Below, one piece after another: positions 570 through 27,320 of a stretch of 33,913 nucleotides of DNA. Under the pieces are notes generated by a model that had not been told where the DNA came from, ran no database searches, and worked only from the letters and a program-made list of their open reading frames with translations. Source of the stretch: Ionaspis alba (taxonomy: Eukaryota); NCBI GenBank assembly GCA_964255285.1, contig CAXUUL010000089.1:1-33913 (forward strand), given 5' to 3'. Positions within the stretch are counted from its first letter, which is position 1; each line of letters starts with the position of its first letter. The position numbers and the translations under genes are program-made.

Positions 570-3561
570 TTAATAAATCTCTATGCCATCTATTACCCAT
601 CCATTATTACCCAGTCTCTCCTGCATCAACCCCTTGACGCCCTTTTCGCCAATCTCAGGCACAAGACGTACGAGGCAGAGTTCTACGATACCGAAGACGA
701 GATGTTTGTTCATGTATGGGTCTCCGAAAATATCCAGAACGTCCTCAATGTCTGCCAGCATCTGCTCACGCTCCTTCTCCGGGTCTGTTGCGACCGGATC
801 ATGGGAGCCATCATGCTGTATGGCGAAGAACCTTCGTGCAATGACGGGTGGTAAGATGCCGAGGATACTTTCAGCACAAGAGCGTTTGATAGCCCTCTGC
901 TGAACCAAAGTCGGTACTGCTCGGGGCGGAGCAAGGGTATTACCAGGGAAGAGGGAGGAGCGGAGAGTGCGGAGGAGCGGCGGCAGCACCGTGGGCGGGA
1001 GGACGTGCGTGGCGATGAGGTTGTGGAGAAGCCTGTTTCCGATAGAGACAATCACCGATTAGCTCAGACTGTCAATCGCAAACGGACTAGTAAGCCAAAG
1101 ATCATGCAATAAATGCCGATCGAGGACGGACAAGGGCAGGACTAAGAGAGATTGAACATGGGACGACGGAAGAGGTTCCGTAAGGCTGGAAGGTTCGGAT
1201 GCGGGAAGGGGGGGGCGAGACTGCGGCAAGGTTTCGAAAAAAGCAGGGACAGGGCCCTTATGCTGTGGAGTCTTTTTCTTGTCAAGGATCGTACCTTGGC
1301 AGTGTGTGTGTATGTAAACTAGATTACGGGGGCGTTGGAAATGTATCAAAGAAAGGAAAAGCAATGACATTTTTGTTCGAATTAATAATAAGCAGAGAAT
1401 GCGGGACGGGAAACGTTGAAGGTCCGCAGAGGCCCCCGACCGTGGGGCCAAGCCTTCGTGCTGAAGCCCCCGGCATTTGGTTGGGGTAGTGAAGCAGGTG
1501 AAGCAGTGGTGTGGTGGGTTGTGGCTTTTGGAGGGAGAGCAAGCTAGGATGGAAGCGGAGAGGACAAGTGGTGTAATGCACGGAGTAACGCGATTTGCGA
1601 CGGGAGAAAATCACAGTGCCCCAAGCGAACGCCAGGATTGCAGTATTGTTCGAACGTATGACTGCATGATTTATTCGCCATTTCTTGGAAAAAACAGAAA
1701 TCGAGGAGGAAATGAGAGGCACGACCGTTTCGGTACTTTGAGTTCGACGAGGCCATGGCGCTGAGTGTGGTTACACAGAGCCATGATTGCCCGGCGGTAC
1801 ACTCGGTGGCGTCGACTGAGAAATTGATGGGAACAAGGGCATTGTCCTCGTTGGACGAAGCAGGTATCATTTAGGGGGGTGGGAAGGGCGAAGATCATTT
1901 TTGCGCGATAATAGCGAACGAGTAGTGATATGCAAGAGAAAGGGAAGGGGGCTTCTTGGGGGGAGAAGGCTGCCGCTTGCCCCGCGCCCTGTCACACGCG
2001 ACGACGGAGACGATGCAAGTCCAACAGCTCAACGTAGTCGATGCAGGCCGGTGCGTGCGTGCATGCAGACAATACAAAGTCAAGTGACCGGAATTTCATG
2101 CGAGGACGGGAAGAAGGCCACATGCGATATATGCACCTCGTAGCCAACGAAATTGCAGAAGTAGGAAATCGAGCACACTCACTTGTCGACGAGTCCGTCA
2201 GTGGCACCCAGTCGCAATGGCCCACTCACGAGGTGGTGTTGCGTGAGGCACATTGATCCATACAGCCATGGCGTGCGCTCGGGCAGATCGAGCAACGACG
2301 CGATCAGCGACGAGATCTTGAAGCTCACAATTGGCCGTTGAGCCGTTGCCGCCGCTCTTTCCCTCCGACCATTTGCCGAGCACTCACTCTGGCCTCGTGT
2401 CGTTGACGTCGTCGGAGCTCGCGAGGGACTGGAGGATGCTGCGACGAGTCCGAGAATGAGGAACCGTACGCCAATGAAACCCAGGTAGCAATATTGTAGC
2501 ACCGGCCAGAACAATCCGGTGATCGCACTCGACCCGTTTCGCCTTGACTCTCGGACTGTTTTCTCGTCCTTGTCCGACAGCAAACCGAATTTCTCCAATC
2601 GACTTCGAGTATCGAGTTCTATCTCTTCACCTGTAGCTTTCGGTTGAAGGTGCGCTTTGATGTTCTCCACAACCCTCGTGATGCCCTCCCAGATCAACCA
2701 GCCTTGGCATGCCTTTCCTCCGATGCCATTGCCCAGTATCATTTCTCCGACGATGTCTGTGACCAAAGTGCGGAGACAAGCATTCCCCAGATCTTCGCTT
2801 GGTAGTAGCACGGCCAAAACGCCCTGCACAAGCAGTTGCCTGTACAGTCCCTCGTTCCTGGATTGCTCCTTCAAGGTCCGTGGCTCGTGGGCGTCCGGAA
2901 CCGGGGAGAATGCAGGATGTGGGACGAGAACATGATAGATCACTCTTGGGTCCGACTCAATTGGAGGTGGCCGCAGAGGCCGCCGGCTCGCCTTATAGGC
3001 TTTGTTTGAGGAATATTACTTAGCACAAGGATAACAGATTGTGGGAGAAGTTCATCACCAACCATTGACATGCCCCTCGACCAACTCCGGAATCTCATCC
3101 AATACCAGACTCTGGATGTCCACGCTGCGAATCCTTTGCTCGAGCGCCCTCGTGCAGTGTGCAATTATCCTCACCACCTCTTCCACAAATCCTTGGTCAG
3201 GTGTGATCTTGCCATACCAGCTGTAGACAAACTCTTTGACAACAATCGATATGATAGCGTACAGTTGCAGGTCGACCTCGTTACTGCTTGTGAGTGGTGG
3301 TAAAAGTTCGTGGAGTGGCAGAGGGTCTGTGGATCCAGGAGGGTGTGGGGAGAGCACGCGCCTGATCAACGCCGCAGCGGCCTTGTCCGAGTTGTCTGCG
3401 ATAGAGGAGTCTGCAGAAACGGCTCGCTGACGATTTCGAGAGGATGCTCGTGAGAGCTCTGGAGTTGTACTGCCCAAGGCATCGAGAGAGGTGCTGCTCG
3501 AAGTCGAGGCGGCTTTACGGCTAGGTAGTAGATGTGGAGGCAGTCGAGGTGGTTGTGTCAT
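570..3561 (-). CDS. PXA (PX-associated) domain protein; exons 3561-3063, 2999-2183, 1032-570
   Basis: PXA motifs LLPPLTSSNEVDLQLYAIISIVVKEFVYSWYGKITPDQGFVEEVVRIIAHCTRALEQR, YRQLLVQGVLAVLLPSEDLGNACLRTLV and C-terminal DVLDIFGDPYMNKHLVFGIVELCLVRLVPE. Introns 3062-3000 (GT..AAG) and 2182-1033 (GTGAGT..GCTAAT..CAG) both keep the frame (DK|LLHNLI). Confidence 0.88.
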
Positions 3562-4250: not shown

Positions 4251-6051
4251 TCACAACGAGTGTATGCTCCTCTTCCGAGACATTTCTTTCTCTCCAACCA
4301 CCATCGAATGCATACCGCCAGGCAGCTCTCCCATGGCACCTTGTACCTTTAGCTTTTCCATAAGTTTGCCCATAATGATGTATTCTTGCCGATCTACCAC
4401 GCCACTGGGTTGGGTAGAGAAGAAGTTCATGACGAGTTCCAGGGCACGTCTTGCTTCGTCCTGTGAAGGCGGAGAAATTGGCGAAGAGATGTTACTGTTG
4501 TTAGGCGAGGAGGTGCTTGTAGACGGATGTGGCGGTGGTGCCATCAACGTTGGACTGCTATTGGGGTTCGGTGTATTGGCAAGGCTCCCAGAGCGAGACT
4601 GTTGGCGTAAAGCATTTTTGGCTGCCAGAGGCGGTTCTGACAGTTCCTCAACGGGAGTCTCTAGAGCAGGTGATGCCATAATCTGTTGAAGATGCATTGG
4701 GGTCAATGCCTCGGTAGATTCTTCTGTTGACGTAAACGTCTGCTCCACGCCAAGCATAGGAAATGTTTGACTGCGTGGTCTTATGTTGTTGGCACCAGCG
4801 GCGGACATCATTCTCGACTGCTGCGACGAAAGATAAGGACTAGCTCCGCAACTGGGGTCTGAGGAGAAAAAAGGCGAAGTTGGACTTTGAGGACCACCGG
4901 AGAACGATGAAGGTGCAGTGGTATCCGAAAAGCAGCTTGCTAGAGACGTTGCACTTTGGGAATGAGCATGTTTGTAATTGGCGGAGAAGTCAAGGTAGCT
5001 ATCAGGAGACCCTGTCTTCAAATTGTCGCGGCTTCGACTTGGAGACATCGGAGAAGGTGAGACAACACCCGAAGGCGAAATGGGAGAGATGCCATTCGGA
5101 GTTTGCGAGCCAGATTGAGAGTCTCCATTGGCTCCGTTGTCTGAATCATGCGCGTCGGAAGCTTTGCGAGGTTTGGCACCCAACAGATGATTCTTCTGCT
5201 TGAACTTCTCCAACCAACTATTACTGTTGACTTTGAGGTGGCTGTCAGAACTTCCTACAGTAGTGGCGAAAAAACGCGCCTTGTCGCGAATAATGCTGTC
5301 GTTCAGTGGCAAGCCTTGACGTTGGTGGTTTCGGGCCCAGTTGGATAAAGCTCGTTCAATGTCCGGAAATTTGCCTTTAGATCGTTTGATAGGCGACCTG
5401 CTACCGTCATCGGGGAACAGGTATTTCTCCTTCTGCCGTAAAACCTTCGATACAGTGCTGTCAAGGAGACAAATCAGCTTTTGATAAGTTGGGAGTTTGA
5501 AAATTAGATTCTACCTTCTTTCGACTCCGAACATTGCTATGACGAGACGTCAGTACAGGGTTAGATCAACGTCGAAGCAGAAAGCACTTACCTCCGATCT
5601 CTGTCTGTTTAACTGTAGGATTGTCTTCGTGATATTGGCACATTCTCCGCCGGTCCAGGTCTGTTAGTGTTCGTCTAGCTGTCGATTGCGGTACGGGTGT
5701 GGTCAGAGGTGGTAACGGATGTGCTGTTGTGAGAGTCGAGACCGGAGCCAGGGGTGGCGGGGGTGTTGGTACTGTAGGCTGAGTGTGATTCGATGGATTG
5801 GTCAACATGCTTGGCCATTGTGTAGTGATCAAGCTATGTGGCGACTGATGAGTCGAATAGAGCGGATGATGTAGAGGTCGATTGTATGCTGGCTCCATGG
5901 GAATGCCATGAGCGCTGGACATATATCCAAAGGCATTGTATTCCTGCGAAGGAGACTCAACGTGTGGTGAGTGATAGTCGTTGATCTCAACCCATTGACT
6001 GTTGCCATAGTCTCCATCATGATGATTTTCTTTCACCATCATGGGATCCAT
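4251..6051 (-). CDS. CENP-B-like DNA-binding protein (Psq-type HTH plus Tc5-transposase HTH, no DDE domain); exons 6051-5592, 5536-5515, 5457-4251
   Basis: Spliced sequence RRTLTDLDRRRMCQYHEDNPTVKQTEIG|AMFGVER|STVSKVLRQKEKYL...KGKFPDIERALSNWARNHQRQGLPLNDSIIRDKARFFA...SWLEKFKQKNHL is the tandem CENP-B HTH pair. It is followed by a Ser/Pro-rich tail. There are canonical splice sites around a 22-nt microexon. Confidence 0.87.
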
Positions 6052-13403: not shown

Positions 13404-14660
13404 TCTCTGCCTTCCCGACTCCGAAAGAGACTCGATGAACGGCGCGAGTACATGGACCAGGACGGTAAGGGTCCCAGATGCGAAGAGTCGTCAGTGAGCA
13501 CCTCGGTAGACCGTGGGAACATGCATCACTAATTGTGAATCAATGTCCTTTTAGGCCGGTCAGCACTGTATACAGCGCTGAAGATAGTGCTCTTGACAAA
13601 TTTGTCTCAACCGTGAACGTTTCATGTTTATCCGAGATCAAAATCATCGTACAATCCTTGTCGCAGATCTCCTGGGCCAAGCTTTGAACGGGCATAAGGT
13701 CCAGCCCGCCGTTGAAAGACGTTTTATTAATTACCCTTTTATCCAGACAAATACACTTGGTATGCGTGATCTTGAGCCGCTAGATATATTGAAAGAGCCT
13801 GCTCGACATCTATCAAGATCAGGTTTTACTATACTTTTCTCCTTGTACGAAGAGAAGTATACAAGCCATAGCTCTTGTTTACACTGGTCAGGCTCTCTTT
13901 AAGTTCTACTTGATTTCATTGAAAACACAGCGAATCTGTATCGGCTTTCCTTGACTCTTTTTTGTTTGAGTCGAGCTGTCATTGCTTAGCGACTGAATCA
14001 GTCCTTTTCCGCTGCCAGCTGTGGCAAGTTTGAGAACCTGGATCGGAACACTGTGCATTGCATCAGCTTGATCTAAGGGTAGAAGTGTAACTCTTCAATT
14101 TTGCAAGAATCGCTGTATCTTGACTTCTTGCTGCATTCCATTCCTCCTCAATCGTAACGTTCGACACTCCTCAAGTATGGTTGGCCCGATAGCGAAGTTG
14201 AACTGCTCTTGGTGATGGCTCTGTGCTGGCTACAAACAGTTTATCGCGATGATTCTCCGAAGCCTATGCTACGTATACGCCGATTAAGAGCCTTTGTCGT
14301 GAGGATGCTGTACCACGATTGGTCCCCTAGTGAGAGCTACCTCATCGCTTTTGAGCTCATGAACCTTGCGGCTGATCATACTCTCGACGTATCCACGATG
14401 GTCGTGCCGGTTATATCAACTCATTATTTCTTCTTCATCGGATAGTATATTCAGACTGGAGTAGTAAGTTTGATTGAAAAGGCTACTCTAGAGTACCACT
14501 CCCACAACAGAAGTCGATGCCAACCCCCCCCTCATCACGTCCGCGCAAACCCCAAGTGATCGACCATGCTAGCAGCTATCTATTGACCAAGGAGGACGCT
14601 CCAGTAACCCGCATTTTTCACTGCCAACCGAAGACCTTCCCCATCTTATACCACGCCCGT

Positions 14661-14990
14661 TTAACCGAAGACACATATGCAGGTGCTGTGGAACGATCAG
14701 TCCATACTCTTTGCCTTTTGAGGCCAAGGGAAACTCACGTTCGGAGGAAGCCACCGCAGTATCCACCAGTTCGGCCACCTTTGAGGGTAATGCACTGAAG
14801 TCTGCCGTCAGCTCATAATTCCCGGAAAGACAAAAGGCTCGAAACATACGTGATCGTTGCAAGCCTGTCTGTTGAAAGGACATCCGAACCCACGCTTCTC
14901 GACGCTAACAGGTGCGGCGTCAGCGACTGGGGCGGGTGCTGCAACTGCCATGGCGAGGAAGGGAAGTACGAGAGCGAGATTGAGCTTCAT
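14661..14990 (-). CDS. Secreted fungal defensin (CS-alpha-beta, plectasin/eurocin/micasin-like) prepropeptide, 73 aa; exons 14990-14850, 14794-14739, 14685-14661
   Basis: Spliced: [73 protein letters not shown]. It has a signal peptide, a propeptide ending in a Kex2-type KR, and six Cys in a C..CxxxC..GxC..CxC pattern. Introns: GTATGT..GCTGAC..CAG and GTGAGT..ACTGAT..CAG. Confidence 0.95.
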
Positions 14991-15110
14991 ATTTGCTGGC
15001 TGAGGGGCTTGGAAGCTGGAAAGAGCGATGAAGGGTCTTTGGAATTGTTGGATTGGATGAGAGTCTGAGATGCTGGTGGGATGCTTCTCTTTCGCAGGGA
15101 GAGGAGCCCC

Positions 15111-15118
15111 TTCTTATA
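15111..15118 (-). promoter_or_regulatory. Putative TATA box of the defensin gene
   Basis: TATAAGAA on the minus strand about 120 nt upstream of the defensin ATG, followed by a pyrimidine/CA-rich leader. Confidence 0.5.
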
Positions 15119-16604
15119 GATCTGGCATTCCGTTTCCGGCTCTTTCTATCCACCATGGGAGGCGCTGATCCAGACTGATCTCCTGCAATTCGAGGAAGCC
15201 ATCAACAAAGCATATCTGCTGATCTCGCCCTGAACGTTGCAGCAGTCCTGCTTTAGCGGTCTTGGCCTTGAGGCACCGAGCTCCGTGCTCTGTGGAACTG
15301 CTCCTCTCACAACCTCTCGTTACTCAAGAGGGTCAAACAGACTTCCTTGCTTGGTGCCGTCTGGATCATCATCTCGGTGGTCTTTCCAGCATCGAATTCC
15401 GCCTACGTTACCGACTCCAGTCCTAGCACCTTGGCATTCATCAGAAGGCCAGTCATTCGCGCTGTTTGGATGAGACTCTGCGGCAAAGTCGACGATTAGG
15501 AGTAGTAGGCGGTGGTGCTCTCGGAACGCTGCTTGATGGTGTACCTTCCAAGACGTAGCATCGTCAATCTTGTCCGTCGTCAAGGCATCGCTTGTGCTCG
15601 GTAGGACCAATTCGCTACGAAGAACCAGAGTGGTTGCTAATGAAAAGGACCAAAGAGTTCGAATAGGTGGATGTTGGAACTATTAGCGTCTTTTGCGGCT
15701 CTCAATCAGCCTCGCTACAACATCCTTCCCGTCTTGCCAAGCGTTGCTTGCGCCCAGTTGGGCGCAATGTTGTACTGGTTAAGCTCGTCTCGGCAGGGCA
15801 GATTGCGCTATGCTGACCACCCGTGCGGACGGAATGCGGGAGCGGAATGCAGATCCAGACCTCTTGGGTGCAGAAGAGTTCAATTAAAGGCTCTTGGTCG
15901 ACTGGCTCTAGCATCGTGCTGACAACACCGGAGATCACACTAATGTCTGCCAAGAGGCTCCGCGGGGTTAGGGCAGGGAGCTCTCGCGTGAGCTTTCGCT
16001 TAATCTCGTTTGAGACTACTGCGGCTCGTCTCTTACTTCCCGAGAGCGTTTAGTGCAATGCGACGTTAGATACGTCCGGTGGCACCGTTCATGATTATCA
16101 CAATTCCAGAGCAAATATTTTGGGAATGATGAACGGATCGCTGGAGGTTTTGTCCTGAAGAGGATACTTTGAGGGGTAAGATGCACGTGGCAAGAGGTGG
16201 GGATTGCCTCGGTCAATTGGGAACCCCAATCTCACCTTGCAAAGCACTTTAATGTAATGATCTTCATCATGCGAAGCATGAAATAGTGGCCTTGTGGCAG
16301 AGCACCTGGGGTGCAACCATTCCATTACTACGCCCGAGAGCTCGATCCATCGCCCTTTTCCGAGCAGTGCAGCTGTCCATGGTGTTACCGTACAAGGTTA
16401 ATCTGATTATGGATGATCTCCTATCCAACATATGTACTTCGAAACAAGAATAGGTACTCGAAACACTTAGAGACAGCCAGGCTCAGTGAAAGAAGCCGAG
16501 CAATGGGTATCGTGATCAGTCTGGCGAGGCATGTACAGAAAGCTCCCCTTTGTACAAGGAGATGAAAAGACGAAAGGATCACAAGGACGCTCGCTTCACT
16601 ACTA

Positions 16605-23847: not shown

Positions 23848-24373
23848 ATCTGATTTGGGGTGTTATAAATTGCACCTCATGAGACTGACATATCCCAGTA
23901 TCAACAAATGGAGTCCGTACTAGTTAGTAGATCTGCGTTTGCCGAAGATTGTTTTTGAAGCCATAAACAGAAGTAGACTTTGATGACCCTGTCATCCACG
24001 GGTGGGATTAGGGCTTTCCGACTAGTGACTGATTAGCTCATATGCCGGCTATACTTTTATCCACTTAGCCGCTTACCGAGCCTATCATACCTCGACCACG
24101 AAACAATGGCTTTCGCCGACCTACAACCTTGACGAGCTTCTTGCAGACAACGACTCGGATGAGACAATTACTCAAGACCGTTATGATCGTGATACAGCTT
24201 CTGGAAGAGCCCGAGCAAGTTCGAGTACTTCATCCCAAACGCGAACTTCTTCTGCAACTCGATCTGAGGCTTTAGCTGAAATCGTCCATTGTTCTCCGTC
24301 AACTGCACCTAGTCATGAATTTGCAGCAGAAGCTCCGCTGTCTTCAAGAACCTGGGAACGCGCCAATCTGGGA

Positions 24374-27320
24374 ATGGAGACAGCAATTCGCTGGTCGCCG
24401 AGGTCTACTTCCTCTGATCCTCACTTTCTCATAGTCGATGTTGTTGGTCACACGTTCAAGTTTTGCAGAGTCAAAGAGTACAAGAAGCATCACCTCCTAT
24501 GGGAAGAACTCTCTAGAAATACCAAAGTGCCTACCTTTCGCGCATTTGACTGGTCCCCCTCGAACAACATCGTTGCTGTTGGTCAATGGTCTGGTGAAAC
24601 AACAGTACTTGGTCTTGATAATAGACCACCGATTTTGAATCTGCCTATTAAATCCCAGAGGCAATGCAATGCAGTCGCTTTCAATACTTCCAGTTATCTT
24701 GCCACAGGCCTTGAGCGTGTCCGTAATGACTTCTGCCTTAACATATACGACGTTCACCAACGACCGGACAACCAGTCACAGAGGAATTCTGGGGCCAAAC
24801 CGTCATTCGTTGATCCTTTCCGCAAGTTCGCAACATCAGAAGGCATAACAAGCATCAAGTTCTTTCCGAAGCAACCTAATACTCTCATAGCAGGAATCAA
24901 GGGAGCCGTGCGACTCTATGATCTTCGGGACGACAGCTCTAACCCTGCACTGCAATACCAAACTCTATGTGTACACAATCTCGCCATTGATCCACTAGAC
25001 GAAAATTATTTCGCTTCTGCTGCACCTCCAAGGGATACTACAGTCCACATCTGGGATCGACGCAATCGTATTCGACCTGTGGCAGGTCGCTCACCATCAG
25101 GTGAAGGCAATAGCCACGATGGACCTGTTTGCGAGCTCAATAACTTCAGTGAGAAAGCAGGCCCTGCAAACATATGGAGTTTACGGTATTCTAGCACTGA
25201 GAGTGGTAGCCTGGGTGTACTGGGGAACAACGGAACTTTCCGAATTTACCGAACCAAGAAGGATTACGTAGACGACACCAGTACTCCAGAACAAGATAGA
25301 AGCAGCAGGGAAATTCATGATCAATATGTCCGTCAGGTTAGGGTCCAGACCCTGCACACTGTCGAACCGTATCTTCAGAATCCGGGCAGGAACAAGAACC
25401 GAGAAGACGCTGATCGCATTGTTTCCTTCGATTTCATGAATATCATGACGCAGAAAGGTCGGCCGTGCGCCATCACTCTACGCGGCAACCAGGACGTTGG
25501 CATATACGAGTTTCCAGATCGCCCTGCAGCCCTTGCGGTCTCTGCCCGAGGTGCCGTAGCAGTAACTTATCCTACCTCTCGAGAGTCTACACGCCAAGAT
25601 GGTGTCGTTACTCGGACTGGACTTACGATCAAGGAGTCGATTGAAGAAGGAAAGATTGCGGACCAATTGGCATTTATGCAAGACAAGCCGTCAAGGGATC
25701 GCCCAATTAGGCTACGCAAAGATCTAGATCAGGATTCAAGGGACTCCAAGTTCAGACACTCCAATTCTTTTCTCGATATATATGAGGCTCTCTTGCTCAT
25801 CGATGTTCCTCGCCGTCGTTGCTTGGAAGGATATCTGTTCGACTGCGAGGAGAATGCCAAGATTGTCATAGAGGCAGGAGACCTGCAGGAGATGTGGAAG
25901 TGGATTGGAGGTATACTTCCTGCTTGCTAGATCTATGTTTATAGGTACTTACTTGTGGCTAGGTGCGGAGAGAAGAGCCTCCAACGGCGAGATGACCTTA
26001 GGGCCGTATGATCTGAGGTATCTAGGAGTACAGAGCCTTTGGAACGAGGAACTCGGTAAGCCAGTGGCCATTGGTTTCATATACATATCTTCGCTGACTG
26101 AGTGAGATCGCCTAAGAAGCAGACCTCCAGAGTCGACGGCACCTCTGTCCATGACCGAGGCCATTATCAACCTCGCGCGATCCATGGAAGCGCACGTCCT
26201 CCTCCTGCCAACGACCGCTTGGCGGCACCATCGCCTGCTGTGCTTGCACAGCATTGGCTTTGGTCTACAGGAGGAGGACGTGCAGCCGGTTGTCATGGCG
26301 CTTGCGTCCTCGGGAGACGTCACGGAGAGTAGTCTCCTGGCGTTGATGTTCAGCCAGACCGACCTTGCGTTCAAGGTCCTCCGCAGGGCTCCCGAAAGGG
26401 GCCGCTACGAAACGCTGGCAATGACCATCACTTTCTTCGCCGGTGGGAAGCTTACCGATTCCCAGCGGTCAAATATTCGAGAAGTGATGGCCGACACCGA
26501 GGACGCATATGCCAAGGCAATACTCGCGTATGCCACGACCGGAGACTGGGCGCAAGTCCTGGACGTGAAGACTCTTCCTGTCAAGTACAAGGCCGCTATA
26601 GCGATGATGTCTCTGAATGACAGAGACCTGACTGTGTGGCTCGAAAAGATGACCAATGAAGTCGTTGAAGATGGTTCAGTGGATGGCATTCTACTTACTG
26701 GCTTGGGCAAAAAGGCAATGTCTCTCTTCAAATCGTACATCGACGAAACTGGCGACCTACAGACTGCAGTCCTCGCCTTGTCCTTCGTTGCGCCACGCCT
26801 CACACAAGACACCCAATTCGAGGTGTGGAAAGAATCTTACCGCTGTCAACTCAATCGCTGGAGACTATGGGTCCAGAGAGCTCGATTCGATATGCAATCG
26901 ACAAAGCTGTCAACAGAGTTTGCGGGAGAGAAGGTTTCCAAGCCAATCCCCTCTCAAGTAACTCTCCGCTGTTACAACTGCAATGAAGCTCTGCAACGCG
27001 ATCAGTCGGCATCGACTGCACTGCTTTCCGCTGCACAACAAACCAGCATCTTCGGCGATACAAGAACAAGTACTGTTTGTCCTAAGTGTAGGGCTCATCT
27101 TCCTCGCTGTGCGATCTGTGATCATTGGCTCGGCATGCCAGATAGGGGATATAATCAAGGTGGAAATGCCACGGGACACGATGCTGCTTTCGACAAACAC
27201 CTTGAAGTTTGTGTTACTTGCGGGCATATGTATCATCGGGGACATGCGACGGAGTGGTTTAAAGGGCATAAGGAATGTCCGGCACCTGATTGTGAATGTT
27301 GTTGCGATATGTTGGATTGA
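24374..27320 (+). CDS. SEA4: SEA complex/GATOR2 subunit Sea4 (MIOS orthologue); exons 24374-25910, 25963-26055, ~26107 (or 26131)-27320
   Basis: N-terminal WD40 propeller (AIRWSP, FRAFDWSP, QRQCNAVAFN..LATGLERVRNDFCLNIYD), GDLQTAVLA alpha-solenoid, and C-terminal zinc ribbon/RING (CPKCRAHLPRCAIC...CVTCGHMYHRGHATEWF..HKECPAPDCECCC). The acceptor of intron 2 and the true N-terminus are uncertain. Confidence 0.9.

Follow-up and report, generated by a model that had tools for sequence, protein, structure and literature searches.

A three-exon gene for a candidate fungal defensin of the fDEF1 class, missing from gene calls, in an apparently lichen-fungal contig

A gene for a defensin-family peptide lies on the minus strand of contig CAXUUL010000089.1, at positions 14661-14990, where three exons are separated by two GT-AG introns. 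The contig is 33,913 nucleotides (nt) long; this whole stretch was analysed and is referred to here as the window. It is very probable that the gene is real and that it encodes a peptide of the defensin family. The fuller account, in which an uncalled three-exon gene of a lichen fungus would give rise to a secreted fDEF1 defensin directed at Lipid II, is probable when taken as a whole. The gene is a new member of a known family of antibacterial peptides, and the family, its gene structure, and its likely mechanism have already been described.

Organization of the gene

An earlier, sequence-only reading of the window had placed introns at 14849-14795 and 14738-14686. Reading of the minus strand confirms all of its coordinates exactly, and both introns are of the GT-AG type. 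Exon 1 (14990-14850) starts with the ATG at 14990 and contains 47 codons. The first 17 codons (14940..14990) encode a predicted signal peptide that is likely cut after Ala-Val-Ala, the following 16 (14892..14939) encode a propeptide that ends in Glu-Lys-Arg, a dibasic site of the Kex2 type, and the last part (14850..14891) encodes mature residues 1-14, which comprise the N-terminus, Cys1, the n-loop, Cys2, and the helix up to His14. Intron 1 (14849-14795) is a 55-nt intron in phase 0 that begins with GTATGT and ends with CAG. It interrupts the helix between His14 and Cys15 and carries a branch-like motif, CTGAC, 13 nt before its 3' end. Exon 2 (14794-14739, 56 nt) encodes mature residues 15-32 and two bases of codon 33, and it supplies Cys3, the m-loop, Gly-Tyr-Cys4, and most of the c-loop. 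Intron 2 (14738-14686; 53 nt, phase 2, GTGAGT to CAG) lies within the c-loop, with a branch-like CTGAT 11 nt before its end. Exon 3 (14685-14661) is only 25 nt long and contains the last base of codon 33, residues 34-40 with Cys5-x-Cys6 and a Val-Phe-Gly tail, and the TAA stop codon.

Joining the exons by script gives a 222-nt coding sequence (CDS) and a precursor of 73 amino acids (aa). The layout proposed from the sequence alone, namely a signal peptide, a propeptide ending in EKR, and a mature 40-mer, is thereby reproduced. In the list of open reading frames (ORFs) of the window, exon 1 is seen solely with read-through of intron 1, as a 60-aa ORF at 14808..14990. When intron 1 is retained, the frame closes after 13 further codons; when intron 2 is retained, a TGA within its donor, read from the minus-strand sequence, closes the frame. 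Therefore, the six-Cys product can arise from the doubly spliced form only.

How often such an arrangement arises by chance was estimated with 2000 mononucleotide shuffles of the 400 nt that follow the first donor. The shuffles were required to have the splice signals and the Cys framework, and similarity to known defensins was not required. Any six-Cys model was found in 1 of the 2000.

The positions and phases of the two introns equal the micasin-type pattern. In genes of that type, a phase-0 intron lies in the alpha-helical region and a phase-2 intron in the c-loop (PMC4165938). Upstream of the coding region, the defensin ATG has an A at -3, and a TATA-like motif, TATAAGAA, was read directly on the minus strand at 15111..15118, 121-128 nt upstream of the ATG. 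Its function is inferred; TATAAGAA is a possible core promoter element.

Relationship to known defensins

The peptide was compared with solved structures and Pfam families one exon at a time. Residues 34-47 of exon 1 match micasin (2lr5, residues 1-14, E 1.1), the scorpion defensin BmKDfsin3 (5xa6, E 1.6), and the defensin 2b68 (E 2.1). These defensins make up three of the four rows at E<=10; the fourth, to a designed protein, is spurious and involves the signal peptide. Exon 2, flanked in the query by three intron codons upstream and the first codon of intron 2 downstream, returned three rows, all of them defensins: eurocin (2lt8, residues 14-29, E 0.0041), BmKDfsin3 (residues 20-30), and MGD-1 (residues 16-30). 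The matches of the two exons are colinear on the solved defensins. Among Pfam families, the exon 1 rows are all sub-threshold, including Scorpion_toxin_alpha-beta at 13.4 bits and DIM at 11.1 bits, and a search of the ESM Atlas with exon 1 was uninformative (best score 0.75).

Closer relatives came to light when 1.84 billion representative proteins were scanned in full by HMMER, exon 1 being the query: seven proteins (P0002-P0008) were found at E<=1e-3. The top match, P0002, is a 401-aa repeat protein; it was judged spurious and kept out of the alignment. Five proteins (P0003-P0007) agree with the window as far as the His codon, after which they run on into a Val and unrelated sequence. The Val is there because the donor GT has been read through. 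In P0005, translation passes through the whole of the first intron in frame and reaches the GGRTGGYC of exon 2.

The remaining protein, P0008, is an uninterrupted precursor of 68 aa. It aligns with the spliced window precursor at 62.8 bits over 64 residues, and it passes the Pfam Defensin_2 family with 35.8 bits against a cut-off of 20.4. Among solved structures, P0008 matches BmKDfsin3 (1.4e-11), micasin (4.9e-11), defensin 2b68 (1.3e-10), eurocin (5.2e-5), MGD-1 (3.6e-4), and plectasin (0.12), out of 30 rows at E<=1.

Together with the Cys framework and the gene organization, the exon-wise matches to micasin and eurocin support the assignment of the window peptide to the fDEF1 or ancient invertebrate-type class, which includes plectasin, eurocin, and micasin. 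This is the CS-alpha-beta class that had been proposed from the sequence alone. That proposal had also likened the GFGCPFN start to micasin and the GGRTGGYC stretch to eurocin. Both likenesses are upheld: 9 of the 14 N-terminal residues are identical to micasin 1-14, and exon 2 aligns to eurocin.

Micasin of the dermatophyte Microsporum canis shares with the window peptide the GFGCPFN start, the loop lengths from Cys1 to Cys2 (six residues) and from Cys4 to Cys5 (seven), the intron pattern (phase 0 in the helix, phase 2 in the c-loop), and the layout of signal peptide, propeptide, and mature peptide. It differs in having 9 residues between Cys3 and Cys4, whereas the window peptide has 11, so that the middle loop of the latter is two residues longer. 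The window peptide also has its own C-terminus, Val-Phe-Gly after Cys6, and it apparently comes from a lichen-forming member of the Lecanoromycetes instead of a dermatophyte. In Table 1 of PMC4165938, a dermatophyte defensin is filed under fDEF1.

Eurocin of Eurotium amstelodami is the best single match. It has an identical GGRTGGYC and the same 11 residues between Cys3 and Cys4; in contrast, it has 42 residues against 40 in the window peptide, and the N-terminal details differ. Plectasin/Pyronesin4 (1zfu) has the same class and Cys framework, and the residue types of its Lipid II network are present in the window peptide. It is nevertheless distant, being absent from the exon-wise matches at E<=10 and reaching only the E of 0.12 noted above even against P0008. 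The n-loop of plectasin is long and contains an acidic stretch, whereas that of the window peptide is short, with the six residues from Cys1 to Cys2, and lacks this stretch. BmKDfsin3, MGD-1, and defensin 2b68, which match the window exons colinearly, come from animals, and MGD-1 contains a fourth disulfide. Unlike these ancient invertebrate-type defensins of animals, the window gene has a fungal precursor layout and a fungal intron pattern. The window peptide thus combines n- and c-loop lengths like those of micasin, a middle loop like that of eurocin, and a conserved hydrophobic tail.

Precursor and mature peptide

The N-terminus of the precursor is hydrophobic, with a mean Kyte-Doolittle hydropathy of 2.25 over residues 3-18, and it is followed by a propeptide that ends at a basic site. 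The signal cleavage site was placed by eye with the -3/-1 rule. Ala17 and Pro19 of the precursor are invariant among the seven aligned sequences, which are the window and six stored relatives. The same holds for Arg33, Gly34, Gly36, Cys37, Pro38, Cys44, Asn45, and His47. Lys-Arg stands directly before Gly1 of the predicted mature peptide, and the Arg33 that adjoins Gly34 is invariant in all seven. Precursors of fDEF1 and fDEF2 contain a propeptide, and in one group the propeptides end with one or two basic residues (PMC4165938).

The mature 40-mer has Cys at positions 4, 11, 15, 27, 35, and 37. It contains three Arg and one Lys against one Asp, as well as one His. Its computed net charge is +2.79 at pH 7, its isoelectric point 8.69, and its reduced mass 4231.9 Da, in agreement with the Cys positions and the charge of about +3 given in the sequence-only reading. 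The arrangement Cys1...Cys2-X3-Cys3...Cys4...Cys5-X1-Cys6 is present, in accordance with the defensin framework as published (PMC5234102). Six residues separate Cys1 from Cys2, eleven separate Cys3 from Cys4, and seven separate Cys4 from Cys5. In the gamma-core, Gly25-Tyr26-Cys27 puts Gly at -2 of Cys4. The cationic residue of the c-loop is Arg32, and in an alignment of seven peptides that cover this part the corresponding column is R, H, or K throughout; a cationic residue in the c-loop has been called a premise for function (PMC5234102). From the framework and from loop lengths shared with the solved relatives, the window peptide is predicted to fold as a CS-alpha-beta peptide with disulfides C1-C4, C2-C5, and C3-C6.

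Conservation in related loci

Further relatives were sought among metagenome contigs with a pattern from exon 1 alone, [KAP]RG[FY]GCP[FL][ND]. This pattern matched 37 stretches, 16 of which encode a relative, and these fall into 15 loci. With the spliced precursor as the query, tblastn found colinear exon-2 matches in all loci except L005, L013, and L014; exon 3 was matched in L001 and L002. A splice-model script gave a three-exon model in 11 of the 15 loci (L001-L004, L007-L012, and L015), which encode four distinct peptides. In all 11, as in the window, a phase-0 intron follows the His codon and a phase-2 intron lies in the c-loop. Exons 2 and 3 of the relatives provide independent support because they are absent from the search pattern.

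Of the loci that gave no model, L005 and L006 end at contig ends, and L013 and L014 have no CxxH stretch. A KRGFGCP[FL]N motif is present in L013 (about 864-911) and L014 (about 1501-1539), after which the frame diverges. A defensin gene whose n-loop is interrupted by an intron could account for this, as could a pseudogene or a chance match.

The peptides of L001 and L002 are closest to that of the window. They also have 40 mature residues, two introns, and a C[I/T]CVFG tail, whereas their signal peptide and propeptide are longer, so that 55 aa precede the first intron, compared with 47 in the window. The mature peptide of the window is identical to that of L002 at 35 of 40 residues and to that of L001 at 34 of 40. 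Differences between the window and L002 in the mature region affect 23 of 27.7 synonymous sites and 7 of 92.3 non-synonymous sites. In a gapped global alignment, the introns of the two are identical at 37 of 55 and 35 of 58 positions. The mature peptide is under purifying selection, with synonymous sites saturated and residues kept.

In the sequence-only reading, the CICVFG tail was described as distinct. This part did not stand. The tail is not unique, because L001 and L002 end in C[I/T]CVFG and L003 and L004 in CICVFN; a tail of this type appears instead to mark a small uncharacterised subgroup. The defensin of L003 and L004 (about 1666-1900) differs from that of the window by a c-loop of 10 rather than 7 residues and by a propeptide of much greater length. 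We take this long c-loop to be eurocin-like.

Gene calls, sequencing runs, and literature

The gene is absent from gene calls. A word-index search of a protein collection with exon 1 (25-83 aa) and with the 60-aa ORF (33-105 aa) gave one candidate each, and none scored. As a control, the neighbouring GT90 ORF retrieved a 100%-identical protein of 590 aa (P0009) from the same collection. This protein is stored with a contig of 33,913 nt, the length of the window, which shows that the window is a complete contig whose gene calls the collection includes. Since the collection contains the GT90 protein of the neighbour yet nothing that matches exon 1, the defensin has been left uncalled. This agrees with the expectation, voiced before this analysis, that automated annotation could easily miss the gene: the neighbour is stored and exon 1 is not, while five relatives are stored as read-through mis-calls. 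These five (P0003-P0007) represent intron-containing fungal defensin genes stored in truncated or read-through form, which is a systematic annotation artefact.

Three sequencing runs are listed for positions 14450-15150 of the window. They are contig sets from one study, and when they were placed on this region, no joints were found. One of them (X2) is identical to the window over 14643-15221, and the variants seen in the runs are all outside the CDS. In run X1, the stretch 14457-14584, which lies downstream of the stop codon, occurs in two contig variants with depths of 58.5 and 28.1. The two differ at positions 14487, 14516, 14524, 14529, and 14554, which points to two alleles or strains in the sample.

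Another reading is that of a silent relic or of an arrangement due to chance: the locus would go untranscribed or be spliced in another way, and no six-Cys peptide would result. The gene is tiny, the protein collection has no call for it, and no RNA run is listed, all of which would fit such a locus. Against this stand the intact frame over three exons, the canonical splice signals and branch-like motifs, the single success in 2000 shuffles, and the intron positions and phases kept in 11 of 15 loci. Moreover, synonymous sites are saturated relative to L002 although 35 of 40 residues are kept, and a second run from the study in question carries the coding stretch unchanged. A relic or chance arrangement is therefore considered very improbable, and a functional gene remains the preferred reading of the locus.

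The exact strings of the window peptide and its relatives were not found in the full texts searched, a search in which strings in figures and supplements would be missed, and they have 0 occurrences in PMC4165938 and PMC5234102. Mining of fungal genomes has already yielded many defensin-like peptides; a single study added 69, many of them unannotated in GenBank (PMC4165938), and few fungal defensin-like peptides have been characterised (PMC8877149). For defensins of lichen fungi, the one mention found was a generic one in a 2026 bioRxiv preprint, where a 'defensin-like protein' Pfam annotation appears among orthogroups in at least 72 of 80 lichen-forming species.

Proposed mechanism

Based on the gene structure and on the characterised members of the family, the peptide is expected to be made and to act as follows. 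The messenger RNA would lose the phase-0 and phase-2 introns, and the resulting 73-aa prepropeptide would enter the secretory pathway, where signal peptidase would take off about 17 residues. A Kex2-like protease would then cleave after Lys-Arg, and the 40-aa peptide would fold with the three disulfides C1-C4, C2-C5, and C3-C6. The folded peptide would kill or inhibit Gram-positive bacteria by binding Lipid II. In this binding, contacts to the pyrophosphate and D-gamma-Glu would come from the N-terminus including Phe2-Gly3-Cys4, from His14 just ahead of Cys3, and from the fifth Cys, while Phe6, Phe30, Leu31, Val38, and Phe39 would dock on the membrane or extend the membrane-contact face.

The residue types that such contacts call for are present. 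Gly1 is free after the predicted processing, Phe2-Gly3-Cys4 follows it, a His precedes Cys3, and the fifth Cys is in place. The sequence-only reading had likewise held that Phe2-Gly3-Cys4 and a helix His are retained; this is so for the residue types, with the His taken as the equivalent of plectasin His-18. In complexes of plectasin/Py4 with Lipid II, hydrogen bonds run from the N-terminus, Phe-2, Gly-3, Cys-4, His-18, and Cys-37 to the pyrophosphate and D-gamma-glutamate (PMC8877149). According to the same source, hydrophobic residues in the N- and C-loops of plectasin dock on the membrane, and adjacent residues bind Lipid II (PMC8877149). Lipid II is the tabulated target of plectasin, eurocin, micasin, and copsin (PMC6272156). 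The chance that the window peptide is antibacterial may be put at somewhat better than even, and the chance that Lipid II is its target at about even.

Several points weigh against this account. The correspondence of window His14 to plectasin His-18 is assumed rather than taken from an alignment. The similarity to solved structures and Pfam families was assessed exon by exon. The structure matches of exon 1 are individually insignificant, with E of about 1-2, and exon 1 alone has no Defensin_2 row in Pfam at E<=10. Exon 2 alone matches PF01097 Defensin_2 with 14.0 bits over profile positions 15-27, below the gathering cut-off of 20.4. The gene models of the relatives were obtained with a splice script that uses the same criteria, and for L003/L004 and L007-L010 this script gave two alternative second donors, of which the more canonical was chosen. 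None of the three runs listed for 14450-15150 is recorded as RNA, and both splicing and expression are predicted. Finally, the fold is no guarantee of activity: Zytrisin-1, although correctly folded when made synthetically, showed no activity, and antibacterial function has been lost in some fungal defensin-like peptides (PMC5234102).

The last of these points belongs to a different reading, in which the gene encodes a real secreted peptide of the defensin fold whose main role is something other than Lipid II-directed killing of Gram-positive bacteria. The peptide could control the growth of its own fungus, act on the photobiont or on other fungi, bind in the manner of ion-channel ligands, or damage membranes via its hydrophobic tail. 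The n-loop of the window peptide, with six residues, is shorter than the long n-loop of plectasin. Both window exons resemble the scorpion defensin BmKDfsin3, and the apparent host, a lichen fungus, lives with a photobiont and a microbiome. In some fungal defensin-like peptides the loss of antibacterial activity has been accompanied by a gain of fungal-growth regulation, and Zytrisin-1 is inactive although it folds (PMC5234102); a 2026 paper describes a fungal defensin that blocks a potassium channel (PMC13199095). On the other hand, the closest characterised members, micasin and eurocin, are antibacterial (PMC8877149), and Lipid II is their listed target (PMC6272156). The window peptide also has a positive net charge and retains both the cationic residue of the c-loop and the types of residue that make up the Lipid II network. 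A main role of this other kind is thus held to be rather unlikely, and an antibacterial defensin directed at Lipid II is the reading we prefer.

Genomic neighbourhood and host

The genes around the defensin encode a PXA domain, GT90, GT8, F-box/LRR, Efg1, MIOS, Tpt1, Pal1, and a fragment of a Tc5-type transposase. In a Pfam scan of the window ORFs, 11 of 23 were assigned a family. A biosynthetic or defence cluster was considered and rejected, since the neighbours are ordinary eukaryotic genes of housekeeping type. Within the window, tblastn found no second defensin, and only the gene itself was matched.

The GT90 neighbour also bears on the host. Its best named homologues are from Xylographa (77-80% identity), Ptychographa xylographoides (76%), and Lambiella insularis (74%), and the other named rows, at 62-70% identity, are from lichen-forming fungi as well. 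Two further GT90 proteins are closer, with 86% and 82% identity. Xylographa is placed in Lecanoromycetes, Ostropomycetidae, Baeomycetales. With this one neighbouring gene as the basis, the contig is inferred to come from a lichen-forming Lecanoromycete near Xylographaceae.

The surroundings of the defensin differ among related loci. In L001 and L002, a MIOS-like WD40 gene (2429-3055) lies about 700 nt downstream of the defensin. In the window, MIOS (24368-24985) is 9.5 kilobases from the defensin and on the opposite strand. The neighbourhood therefore appears to be loosely kept but rearranged. The WD40, alpha-solenoid, and zinc-ribbon domains of MIOS are split in the window over two plus-strand ORFs, 24029-25930 and 26106-27320, which presumably belong to a single gene that an intron or a frame change divides. 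On the minus strand, an ORF at 4251-5510 contains a Tc5 transposase DNA-binding domain (HTH_Tnp_Tc5, 1.4e-16) and is probably a remnant of a pogo/Tc5-type transposon.

Significance

Fungal defensins of the plectasin class are validated antibiotic leads, and each natural variant informs the relation between sequence and activity; a plectasin derivative has reached clinical trials (PMC13139365). The window peptide is a reasonable candidate for synthesis and testing. To a specialist its existence will come as no surprise, and it changes no concept. The gene also exposes a blind spot of annotation, in which short multi-exon relatives enter large protein collections solely in the form of truncated ORFs with read-through.

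A further and quite doubtful proposal is that the window peptide, L001 and L002, and perhaps L003 and L004 form a distinct conserved defensin subfamily, recognised by a Cys-x-Cys-Val-Phe-Gly/Asn end, in which the tail would have its own mode of membrane anchoring or targeting and the peptide a role in the thallus microbiome. At least the window member would belong to a lichen-forming fungus. If this were true, the hydrophobic tail would act in a mode not seen in plectasin, eurocin, or micasin, and the mycobiont would shape the bacteria or the cyanobacterial partners of the thallus with such a peptide. The subfamily would then offer a new scaffold for Lipid II binders and a molecular handle on how the microbiome of lichens is controlled.

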